A DNA stretch of 60,159 nucleotides, filler included, from Parachlamydiales bacterium (GTDB lineage Bacteria; Chlamydiota; Chlamydiia; Chlamydiales; Parachlamydiaceae): assembly GCA_020051075.1 (NCBI GenBank). It is 3 parts of 3 records of this genome, joined end to end, with 100 filler letters (N's around TTAATTAATTAA, not from the genome) between each part and the next. Parts side by side here need not be neighbours in the genome. Positions count along the whole stretch, not along the records: positions 17,042 to 42,604 come from JAGVJP010000020.1; 2 more parts are not named here. One strand, given 5' to 3'. This document shows positions 39,001-42,000 of the stretch, piece after piece. Positions within the stretch are counted from its first letter, which is position 1, and every line of letters begins with the position of its first letter. Made by a program: the position numbers.

Positions 39001-42000
39001 CCAGCAATGCCAAGAGAACGGGCGCAGATAGAACCCGCTGGGCCTGCGCCTACAACAATGACATCATAATCATTCGACATATCAGGGGGGACCAACTTAA
39101 TTTTTTTGCAGCATACTCCACAAAGGCTAAAAAAGACAAGGATAACTCACTCTACGCTGCTGTTACAAGAGCTTTCTCAAATCATAGCAAAAACAGGATA
39201 AGCAGGATCGCAAGCGGCAGGATAAGCAAGATAATAGGAAAGTTCAGATAAACAAAACACAAAAAATAAAAAAACTATCTCATCCTATCCTCACTATCTA
39301 TCCTATCCTGTCTATCTTGCCGCGAAGCGATCCTGCTTATCCTGTTTATTTATGCTGGGAAGTTGCAATTTTGCCTATCCTGTACATCTTGTTTATGAGA
39401 GTTGTTGAGGGTAAGAATAGAGGATTGTTAATTTCTATATTTTATGGTATAATCTATTCCTTGATGGGATTATCCCTGCCTCTAAAAAATATATTTCATG
39501 GACAATCATATGAAACGAGTACTTTCTTCCGAACTTCCCCACCATATTGGACAGCCTGTCTGCTTGCGAGGGTGGTTGAACACGCTGCGCTCTCTTGGAA
39601 AAGTGAATTTCTTAATTTTGAGAGATTTTAAAGGGCTGTCTCAAATTGTGATCCAAGATAAAAGCGAATTTCATAAAGTCGCCCATTTACAGCCAGGCTC
39701 GATATTACGGGTTGAAGGGATGGCGGTTAAATCTTCTCAAGCAGGGCTTGGCATCGAAGTGATCGATCCGAAGATCACGGTTGAAGTCCCTATCGAAGAG
39801 GTGATTCCTATCGAATACTATAAGCCCGAAATCCCATCTGATTTAGAATTTATTTTGGATCATCGTTCCATCGCTCTGAGAAATATCAAACTTCAAGCCG
39901 TCTTCAAGATCCAGGCAGAGATTGTGCATGCCTATCGGCTGTTTATGCACGATCAAGTCCATGCTGTCGAGTATTTTGCCCCCAACATCATCGGAGCCTC
40001 TTCAGAAGGAGGCGCAGAGTTTTTCAATGTGGATTATTTTGGATATTCAGCGACGTTAGCCCAAAGCAGCCAGCTCTATAAACAAATGATGGTTGGAGTG
40101 AATGAAAGAGTCTTTGCATTGATGCCTTTTTTTCGCGCCGAACCTTCTCATACCCCTCGCCATCTCGCTGAAGGCAAGCAGCTCGAATTTGAGATGGGTT
40201 TCTTCGACCATTGGCATGAGATTCTCGATGTCGAAGAAAGGTGCATTAAATTCATTGTCAAACATCTACACGCTCACTGCGCTCCTGAGATCGCTGCTCT
40301 TAATCATCAGATCATCGATGCTCCAGAAGATGTTCCCTTTCCTCGGTTAACCTTTGCTGAGGCTCAGGAGCTCTACTACAAGCGCACCGGAATTGATGAA
40401 CGACAAGAAACCGATTTGAGTCCGGCAGCTGAAAGGGAGCTCTGTGCCTATGCCCATGAGACTTTCGGGACAGACCTGATCTTCATCACCGACTGGATGA
40501 CGAGCAAACGTCCCTTCTACTCTTTCCCAAAAGAGGAAGATCCTCAGTTGACTAATACGTTCGACCTCCTTTGTGCGGGGACTGAAATTACTTCAGGAGG
40601 ACAGCGGCGCCATACGTTTGAATCGATGGTGGAAGGGATCCTCTTAAAAGGAATGGACCCCTCGAACTTCGATGATTATCTCAGCATATTCAGATATGGG
40701 ATGCCTCCCCATGGAGGCTTTGGCATAGGCTTGGAGAGGTTGACGATGACCATCCTTAAATTAAAGAATATTCGTCAAACTTCCCTGTTTCCATCCGACA
40801 CAAAACGGATTGCAGGCAATCGGATAAAAGCCAAAATCTTTTTCGGAAGCGAAAACATCCGAAATGAAATCGTCCGGTTAGTGCGCCATCATGAGCTAGA
40901 ATTCAATCATCTCATCCATGAGGCAACTCCCACTTCTGAAGATTCTGCAAGAGTGCGAGGGACCTTGCTCGAAGAAGGGATCAAAGCCCTGATTTTAAAA
41001 GGGAAAAACAGCAAGAAAAATTACCAGTTCAACCTCCAGTCTCATCAGAAACTCGACATGAAAGTTGTGGCAGATCTTGTCGGTGAAAAATGCGAATTCG
41101 AAGATCCAGCCGTCATCCGTGAGCGCTTCGGCCTCGAGATTGGAGGCGTGCCTCCTTTTGGCAATTTAATGAATCTGGAAACATTCTTCGATGAAAAGAT
41201 CAAATCGCTTAACACAGTGGCTTTCAATTGCGGCTTGCTCACCGAGTCGATTATCATGAAAGGCGAAGATTTAGTGAAATTGATTCAACCTAAATTTGGA
41301 CCCTTTTCAAAGTAATGTAAAGTCATTCATAGGAGAAAAAATGAATAAAATATTATATATACTTTTTTCATTATTTGTTTTCGTTTCTGTGCACCTCAGC
41401 GCAGTCGTTATTGAAACCGTTGATCTGGAGGCTGTAGAGCAAGAAATTCTACAACTGGATGAAGAGGCTCTTGTTGTTTTCGATGTGGATTATACCCTGC
41501 TTGTTTCAAACGACTGCGTTTTAGGGCCTGCTGGAGAAAAGTATCGTCAAGAGTTCAATAGAAAATGGCGCGATCATTCCGATTGGGAGAGGCTTATCAG
41601 CAAAATTTTGATTAAGAGCCAAAGTTCCCTCGTGGATGAGAAAGTTCTATCCCTTATCGAGACGCTGAAAAAGAAGAAAATTAAAACAATGGCCCTGACA
41701 GCAATGTCAACAGGGAAAATTGGTTTGATTCCAAATGCTGTGGAGTGGAGAATCAATCAACTCGATTCTTTGGGAGTTAATTTCGACTGGTCGTTTCCTT
41801 CGCTTGATGCGGTGACATTTCATGAGTTCAAAGCCAAAGGATCGCCTCCTGTTTTTAAACAAGGTGTATTGGCCTCGTCAAGTTACCCCAAAGGGGAAGT
41901 TTTAATTGCATTCCTTAGAGAAATTGGATGGAAGCCCTCTAAAGTCATCTTTGTGGACGACCGAATAGAGTATATCCAATCTGTTGAGTTGGAGCTCGGT

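Follow-up and report, generated by a model that had tools for sequence, protein, structure and literature searches.

Editing domains have been described for about half of synthetases. In the window analysed here (the whole stretch of DNA, 60,159 nt with filler, from the Parachlamydiales bacterium assembly GCA_020051075.1), one gene joins an aspartyl-tRNA synthetase (AspRS) to a predicted aminoacyl-tRNA deacylase domain of the INS superfamily. This arrangement raises the questions of whether the protein serves as an AspRS and what its second half might remove from tRNA. The initial annotation reported no description of an AspRS with a built-in editing domain, and our literature search for an INS-family domain attached to AspRS found none either; its scope did not extend to the ProXp-ST paper of 2015 or the superfamily chapter of 2020, which could mention the fusion. 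The available portions of reviews on INS-family domains name no AspRS among the carriers, and those of PMC11295145 name ProRS as the only fusion host. AspRS and the deacylase are each known; their union, its recurrence and the displacement of aspS that goes with it are real and, as far as searched, unstudied.

Layout of the fused gene and features of its synthetase half

Translation of the locus gives one uninterrupted frame (Table 1), in which an archaeal-type AspRS (residues 1-434) is followed by an INS-superfamily deacylase domain (residues 448-601). Pfam tRNA_edit (PF04073) covers residues 470-591 with its whole model (5e-21). The frame and the Pfam domains bear out that the fusion is intact and full length, as first annotated, and the PDB matches given then (1n9w, 2cx5, 2dxa) came up again in repeated searches. 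The tetranucleotide profile of the contig (C123) correlates with that of the genome at r 0.978, the median of the 85 contigs of 10 kb or more being 0.974; the contig thus fits the genome in composition. Mean pairwise identity is 78% in the linker, 76% in the catalytic core, 63% in the deacylase domain and 53% in the OB domain. The AlphaFold model of the fusion, made with a 52-row alignment, has a mean pLDDT of 89 and a pTM of 0.69, with low confidence at linker residues 429-441; among the matches listed by Foldseek for this full model there were class IIb synthetases alone. A single-sequence fold of the isolated deacylase domain (pLDDT 37) was set aside. A promoter scan gave 5 sites versus 5.2 expected. 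The genome collection holds 547 stretches that encode a relative; in the best 80 of these no conserved gene neighbourhood was found, the commonest neighbour (presumably pnp-like, by reading of its sequence) occurring in 14.

Table 1. Coordinates of the fused gene and of its features in the window. Fractions of 77 refer to the alignment described in the text.
Feature	Position	Strand	Basis
AspRS-deacylase fusion gene, 601 aa	39510..41315	+	single stop-free frame, same in 62/200 relatives
OB-fold anticodon-binding domain, residues 17-91	39558..39782	+	Pfam tRNA_anti-codon; alignments; conservation
Class IIb catalytic core, residues 113-430	39846..40799	+	Pfam tRNA-synt_2, 4e-69; conservation
Atypical motif-2 strand GKQLEFE, residues 222-228	40173..40193	+	conservation; comparison with unfused relatives
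Short linker and first helix, residues 435-454	40812..40871	+	conserved like the catalytic core
INS-superfamily aminoacyl-tRNA deacylase domain (predicted), residues 448-601	40851..41312	+	YeaK/ProXp-ST1-like; signature HExTPTSEDSARVRG
Lys492	40983..40985	+	faces Lys279 of E. coli ProRS INS in the alignment; 77/77
GxxxP loop, G545-G-V-P-P549	41142..41156	+	G545 75/77, P549 77/77

The NF003483 profile scores 447 bits on the fusion (cut-off 353), and TIGR00458 scores 357.6, below its cut-off of 368.4. Pfam and the structure match agree on an OB domain and a class IIb core devoid of the GAD insertion; residues 1-435 of the model align with 1n9w at Z 37.8 and rmsd 2.1 over 356 residues, with 42% identity (VIA-align). 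The profile score and the structure match uphold the initial view of a complete archaeal-type AspRS. Conservation was read from 77 sequences, namely the query and those from 76 of the 80 loci (the best 80 of 547 stretches), four partial ones being left out. Residues Lys191, Gln192, Arg209, Glu228, Arg366 and Arg410 are unchanged in all of them. We take Lys191, Gln192 and Arg366 to be the Asp-binding residues, and assume that the first two, with the Asp/Glu position of motif 2, separate AspRS from AsnRS. The genome's own AsnRS has Gly and Glu where the fusion has Lys191 and Gln192. A literature search on AspRS specificity residues found no paper.

Motif 2 departs from the usual pattern. Position 226 is Asp in 101 and Glu in 8 of the 112 unfused representatives, versus Glu in 20 of 23 fused ones, Glu also being the residue of the genome's AsnRS; position 222 is Gly in the fusion and mostly Phe or Tyr in unfused relatives. 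The idea that fusion compensates for the Asp-to-Glu change was rejected, since fused forms with Asp (3/23: P0006, P0008, P0010) and unfused forms with Glu both exist. In the OB domain, Thermus AspRS2 carries His/Pro and Thermococcus AspRS Trp/Lys at two positions which in the fusion are Asn24 and Gly79; across the 77 sequences position 24 is Asn in 60 and His in 15, and Pro is absent from the five commonest residues at position 79. We assume that His/Pro is the determinant of the non-discriminating type, a point on which a literature search found nothing. Neither the non-discriminating His/Pro nor the discriminating Trp/Lys pattern is present at 24/79, so that neither character is established. 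The non-discriminating character initially ascribed to the enzyme is not supported, given Asn24/Gly79 and the presence of AsnRS in 60 of the 62 chlamydial genomes that carry the fusion; the latter indicates that the fusion is no stand-in for AsnRS.

Family and conserved residues of the deacylase domain

The domain was compared directly with YeaK, YbaK, INS and family members in PDB (ProXp-ST2 and ProXp-7/8/9 lying outside the comparison). Within this set its sequence is nearest to E. coli YeaK/ProXp-ST1 (154 aa aligned, 29% identity, 70 bits, 1e-20), YbaK being further (89 aa aligned, 47 bits, 4e-12). TIGR00011 (YbaK) scores 53.7 bits against a cut-off of 153.25, and NF007951 36.7 against 243. 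The initial assignment to a YbaK/ProX family of editing domains therefore stands as regards an INS-superfamily deacylase and falls as regards YbaK, YeaK giving the stronger match and the YbaK cut-offs being missed. The yeaK gene product is ProXp-ST1, according to an excerpt of PMC7603204. The predicted model of the C-terminus has the INS fold: it aligns over 148 residues with both 1wdv (Z 20.6, rmsd 1.9) and 1dbu (Z 18.6, rmsd 2.6), and matches 3op6 (Z 17.5) and 5vxb (Z 15.9).

A Lys and a GxxxP motif are the common catalytic features of the superfamily in the available part of PMC11286415. The corresponding residues of the fusion, left unchecked in the initial annotation, are invariant at Lys492 and P549 and nearly so at G545 (Table 1); as judged from these residues, the domain looks catalytically intact. 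The pocket region is polar (Ser476, Ser479, Arg483). Ser476 aligns with Ile263 of ProRS INS, and on the pocket side the domain departs from YeaK at two aligned positions, Cys being replaced by Ser476 and Val by Ser479. In a quick tree, YeaK forms a long branch outside the domain's clade. An atlas search returned generic tRNA_edit clusters only.

The fused domain is the sole tRNA_edit match in this genome, whose ProRS is of a 507-aa type without INS. At least one tRNA_edit protein, the fused one, is present in 5/5 carriers examined, and none in four of the five non-carriers; chlamydiae can therefore translate without one.

Spread of the fusion and fate of bacterial aspS

The fusion was found full length and stop-free, at 63-83% identity, in 62 of 200 other Chlamydiota genomes. 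G191 has it divided between two contigs and G188 as a pseudogene, and none of the 29 genomes of family f4 contains it. That it is common in chlamydiae, as initially noted, is therefore correct; the figures given then were 46/200, with three more in pieces, and those of the sample used here are 62, one split copy and one pseudogene. When the bacterial-type gene was sought with TIGR00459, the 62 carriers had aspS intact in 18 cases, in decayed pieces in one (G033) and not at all in 43, whereas 133 of 134 non-carriers had it (G005, G140, G188 and G191 being outside the count). Within this genome's own family, 12 of 14 carriers retain an intact aspS.

The relatives being draft genomes, absence of aspS was examined at its locus. 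The gene order in the present genome is hisS, aspS and a gene of 301 aa, which we take to be Mip-like by reading of its sequence. Thirty of the 43 aspS-less carriers were searched and hisS was found in 29. In 19 of these loci the slot is empty, hisS being followed by the 301-aa gene within about 450 bases, which indicates that loss of aspS is a real deletion; in two (G096, G184) the fusion itself occupies the slot after hisS. The remaining eight show contig ends, other arrangements or a different type of hisS. That the fusion is the sole AspRS found in 43 of 62 carriers, as against one of 134 non-carriers without aspS, supports its being able to act as the working enzyme, as the initial annotation had proposed. 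We regard it as nearly certain that the fusion supplies Asp-tRNA(Asp) as a working AspRS, native aspS becoming redundant and often being deleted. Taken together, the genomes show each step in the replacement of an essential translation gene, from coexistence of the two genes through a frameshifted, a decayed and a deleted aspS to one whose place the fusion has taken.

The split of aspS by a frameshift in this genome (C85 61116-62905) was confirmed, on a contig other than that of the fusion and not beside it as first described. The frame changes directly after the PEGAR motif, because a CG run at C85:61662 contains two surplus bases. These are absent from contigs of 96-99% similarity, which belong to relatives and not to this strain, in three of four sequencing runs; no contig of the fourth bridges the site. 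No RNA run was among those listed in a sequencing-run search with this stretch. When 244 ORFs taken from 400 kb of G055 were used to survey 137 orthologues, no frameshift other than that of aspS turned up, so that this sample did not bear out the earlier remark that other essential genes are split as well. None was present in a further set of 67 genes, the single flag there being due to tandem paralogues. Four of the survey's five 'stop' flags were alignments extending beyond the true stop, and the fifth (C63) looks like a query in a non-coding frame. So low a background favours a real lesion over an assembly error, and the frameshift is, somewhat more probably than otherwise, a real and recent lesion in a redundant gene; the intact aspS of 12 of 14 family carriers speaks for the assembly error, in which case this genome may have a second AspRS besides the fusion. 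As to the other charging genes annotated at first, AsnRS, GatB (for GatCAB) and GlnRS were found, the last being a 564-aa protein without YqeY domain rather than a GlnRS-YqeY fusion.

The range of the fusion is not limited to chlamydiae. The best 80 of the 547 stretches are mostly chlamydial, with some labelled Saccharibacteria, Bdellovibrionota, Legionellaceae and deltaproteobacteria; the fusion also occurs in records labelled Dojkabacteria and Doudnabacteria, and the domain is found on bacterial-type AspRS as well. Clusters of fused proteins reach down to about 36% identity. Their database labels read plain AspRS, one cluster being named Ca. Similichlamydia laticola AspRS. Further loci were surveyed as the best 80 of 163 from a scan with free-standing relatives and the 20 best loci of the CPR class. 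Four loci (L148, L165, L307, L318) have the domain clade on a bacterial-type AspRS lacking GAD, which requires a separate fusion or a move of the domain. In an 88-row quick tree the clade is joined to several archaeal-type backbones, and the sister of several fused forms is unfused, at starred support. Both this tree and the one with YeaK come from quick IQ-TREE runs with no bootstrap; they are compatible alike with one old fusion followed by losses and with several fusions to archaeal backbones. The existence of close unfused sisters (P0004, P0011, P0029) and the G188 pseudogene indicate that the domain is dispensable.

Among ten distinct free-standing copies, six lie within about 1 kb of aspS, which is of the bacterial type in L141 and L142 and of the archaeal type in L144, L146, L220 and L308; the other four (L143, L145, L198, L300) are away from aspS within flanks of 1.5-3 kb. 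Outside this count is a free-standing sister clade (P0252-P0268), which shares the signature. In the class to which G211 belongs, 82 of 151 genomes have the domain, some of those sampled having been picked beforehand as carriers. Fusion to bacterial-type AspRS and the closeness of six of ten free copies to aspS point to a link with AspRS itself.

What the domain may remove from tRNA

We explain these data best by a working, horizontally spread AspRS with its own predicted post-transfer proofreader, a reading in which we place middling confidence. The N-terminal 434 residues would charge tRNA-Asp, the incoming gene rendering native aspS redundant; comparative genomics leaves little room for doubt on this step, and the invariance of Lys191, Gln192 and Arg366 and the decay of aspS in G033 also speak in its favour. 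The C-terminal half would likely be an active INS-fold hydrolase, Lys492 and the GxxxP loop holding the CCA end in place for hydrolysis of the ester, as the fold and the invariant residues suggest. Repeated fusion or adjacency to both types of AspRS argues that it probably strips a wrong amino acid from tRNA-Asp, either as the acceptor end quits the synthetic site or from released tRNA nearby. By kinship with YeaK/ProXp-ST1, the L-amino acid removed might be small and polar, namely Ser or Thr, a guess to which we give less than even weight. Tethering would also shield correct Ser-tRNA(Ser) and Thr-tRNA(Thr) from a hydrolase promiscuous for tRNA. Against the reading weigh the pocket-side differences from YeaK and its long branch, the non-carriers that have no tRNA_edit protein and the signs of dispensability. 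In the literature searched, no report was found of Ser or Thr being mischarged by AspRS; the error that PMC10123102, in its accessible part, names for this enzyme is chiral, D-Asp normally being cleared by DTD.

That source, which counts AspRS among the synthetases charging D-amino acids, lends weight to a chiral proofreader, in which the domain takes D-Asp off tRNA-Asp and makes DTD partly dispensable. Such a role would account for the link to both AspRS types. Of the 62 carriers, 22 have an intact DTD, as against 72 of the 106 non-carriers outside f4 (Fisher's test, 5e-5; permutation within families, p 0.0007; z adjusted for size, -4.5), three broken matches being scored absent and kin being non-independent; in family f6 the counts are 2/14 and 10/14, and the one control gene, PF02590, has no deficit (46/62 vs 71/106). 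However, the CPR class sample shows the opposite (DTD accompanies the domain in 12 of 82 genomes and occurs in 3 of the 69 that lack it), and complementarity with DTD was consequently dropped as a general rule, holding in chlamydiae and failing there. This genome, moreover, retains DTD, and DTD serves Tyr, Trp and Phe too, which a tethered domain would leave uncovered. To our knowledge, no INS-fold enzyme acts on D-aminoacyl-tRNA. We deem the chiral role unlikely. The domain could also be a general trans-editor, a broad Ser/Thr (or Ala/Cys) deacylase whose fusion serves co-expression, stability or co-transfer only. It is the genome's one tRNA_edit protein beside a ProRS without INS, four of ten free-standing copies are away from aspS, and ProXp-ST1 is, in the portions available of PMC11295145 and PMC7373986, a Ser/Thr-tRNA deacylase of broad tRNA range (Val, Ile, Thr, Ala and Lys tRNAs in the former). 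A diverged copy in G063 is fused to a GNAT domain instead of AspRS, but this copy has lost the TPTSEDSARVRG signature. The genome's ThrRS still has its N-terminal editing region, by reading of the translation, and a trans-editor leaves unexplained why AspRS is the nearly constant partner or neighbour, on unrelated backbones; this role, too, seems improbable to us.

A quite different substrate would be Asp-tRNA(Asn), if the AspRS were non-discriminating and AsnRS were present in the cell as well. The closest solved enzyme is indeed the non-discriminating Thermus AspRS2, AsnRS accompanies the fusion in nearly all carriers, asnS adjoins in several CPR loci (L144, L146, L150, L193) and the pocket region is polar; yet the His/Pro pattern is lost, and Asp-tRNA(Asp) would itself be at risk from a domain that takes L-Asp. 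Moreover, this genome has gatB, as do 31 of the 37 non-chlamydial genomes drawn from the surveyed loci, which speaks against clearing for want of GatCAB. tRNA-Asn retains U1-A72, the pair read by GatCAB according to an excerpt of PMC9976931, and with gatB present Asp-tRNA(Asn) would be amidated. We find this substrate very hard to credit. Scarcely any likelihood attaches, in our view, to a non-catalytic appendage that merely helps bind the acceptor end of tRNA or steadies the dimer. The conserved Lys of INS enzymes acts mainly in CCA binding (PMC10164551, in its available part), so that conservation of the Lys alone is no proof of hydrolysis, and the atypical motif 2 (Gly222, Glu226) might need support. 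Against this, the whole active-site set is conserved and common to the free-standing copies, and fused forms with a normal motif-2 Asp exist.

Extending the proofreader reading, we may speculate, with considerable doubt, that the TPTSEDSARVRG clade is an undescribed AspRS-dedicated INS subfamily that clears tRNA-Asp, in cis, of D-Asp or some other residue resembling Asp, and that such a proofreader gave the synthetic site freedom to drift (from Asp to Glu226, from an aromatic residue to Gly222) and made it easier for the gene to oust native aspS among host-dependent bacteria. If true, this would be an editing aspartyl-tRNA synthetase, acting on a residue new to INS enzymes. A clade that joins AspRS repeatedly, on both backbones, points to an Asp-tRNA error that nobody has measured, and the fusion hints at a step that would correct errors in protein synthesis. 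The reading lends itself to direct testing, with a single soluble protein of 601 aa and the point mutant K492A.

Several known systems resemble parts of the fusion. Thermus thermophilus AspRS2 (1n9w, 3kfu), the best PDB sequence match (9e-96), has the same OB and catalytic layout without GAD, but lacks a C-terminal domain, has His/Pro in place of Asn24/Gly79 and reads YLSLDVE in motif 2 instead of GKQLEFE. YeaK shares with the domain HE..(R)RG, the catalytic Lys (KAL), GxxPPF, AFNxG and a Ser facing Ser580; it differs in being free-standing, in having VGKCEAVSEI where the fusion has TPTSEDSARV and in the long branch between the two. YbaK, a Cys-tRNA(Pro) deacylase (1dbu, 2dxa), has the fold, the Lys and GxxxP in common with the domain and a weaker pairwise match than YeaK. 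DTD, which clears D-Asp-tRNA (PMC10123102, available part), is like the fusion in the role proposed for the chiral case and partly complementary to it in chlamydiae, but belongs to an unrelated family (PF02580), is free-standing and exists alongside the fusion both in this genome and in 22 of 62 carriers. The known synthetases with a built-in INS-family domain are, in the accessible parts of PMC11295145 and PMC11286415, ProRS with INS or N-terminal ProXp-ala. These edit Ala-tRNA(Pro) within a class IIa host, whereas the present fusion places a domain of another subfamily at the C-terminus of a class IIb AspRS.

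Synthetases in and beyond the fusion carriers

Archaeal-type AspRS is also found in settings other than fusion to the deacylase domain. An unfused archaeal-type enzyme of a different kind is encoded in G140, a chlamydial genome without a match to the usual bacterial aspS gene, and constitutes a second, independent displacement. In three representative proteins (P0037, P0043 and P0024), an archaeal-type AspRS forms the C-terminal part of a fusion whose leading part is GatB in the protein of 955 aa and an amidase/GatA domain in those of 963 and 569 aa. Several genomes carrying the fusion have a HisRS of another type, as a second enzyme or as a replacement (loci L116, L117, L119 and L120); synthetase swapping therefore extends beyond AspRS. 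The GlnRS-YqeY fusion proposed for the source genome in the initial annotation was not borne out, as the GlnRS of this chlamydial genome lacks a YqeY domain; GatB is also present.

Other partners and copies of the deacylase domain

One copy of the domain, in G063, has diverged and is fused to a GNAT acetyltransferase domain, a combination possibly acting on aminoacyl-tRNA. Additional copies occur in two further genomes: in G073 the deacylase end recurs as a partial second copy at a distance of 1.1 kb from the fusion, and contig C1 of G213 has two full copies, 5 kb apart.

Features of the window, the source genome and compared loci
Feature	Location	Strand
RelE-like ORF (92 aa), then HTH/MqsA-like ORF	window 30299-30983	-
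SAM hydroxide adenosyltransferase-family protein, 543 aa, signal-like N-terminus	window 31493-33124	+
HD-domain protein, 505 aa, weak tRNA nucleotidyltransferase tail	window 34253-35770	-
85-aa ORF, apparent membrane-protein start, addiction-module antidote fragment (PF21716)	window 36377-36634	-
PF01223 tandem pair	window 44973-50176	+
PF01223 paralogue, split into two ORFs	window 44973-46217 and 46368-47501	+
PF01223 paralogue, whole, 865-aa ORF	window 47579-50176	+
GlnRS, plain, 564 aa	G000 (source genome):C22:3139-4833 (= L319:240-1934)	-
Unfused archaeal-type AspRS	G140, L087:3370-4695	
GNAT-deacylase protein	G063, L088:3359-4549	
Partial deacylase copy	G073, L089:3531-3770	

Other reading frames in the window

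Outside the contig holding the fusion (C123) lie two tandem paralogues with a C-terminal non-specific endonuclease domain. As judged by eye, they have Ser-rich N-termini and also contain ankyrin-like motifs; they look like secreted chlamydial proteins. The RelE-like ORF, whose Pfam match is weak and below the cut-off, and its HTH/MqsA-like neighbour likely form a toxin-antitoxin pair, which a DUF488 gene adjoins. In the 85-aa ORF, possibly a remnant, the beginning of a membrane protein appears to be fused to the antidote fragment. The HD-domain protein apparently lacks the normal N-terminal catalytic head, and the SAM hydroxide adenosyltransferase-family protein is about twice the length usual for its family.
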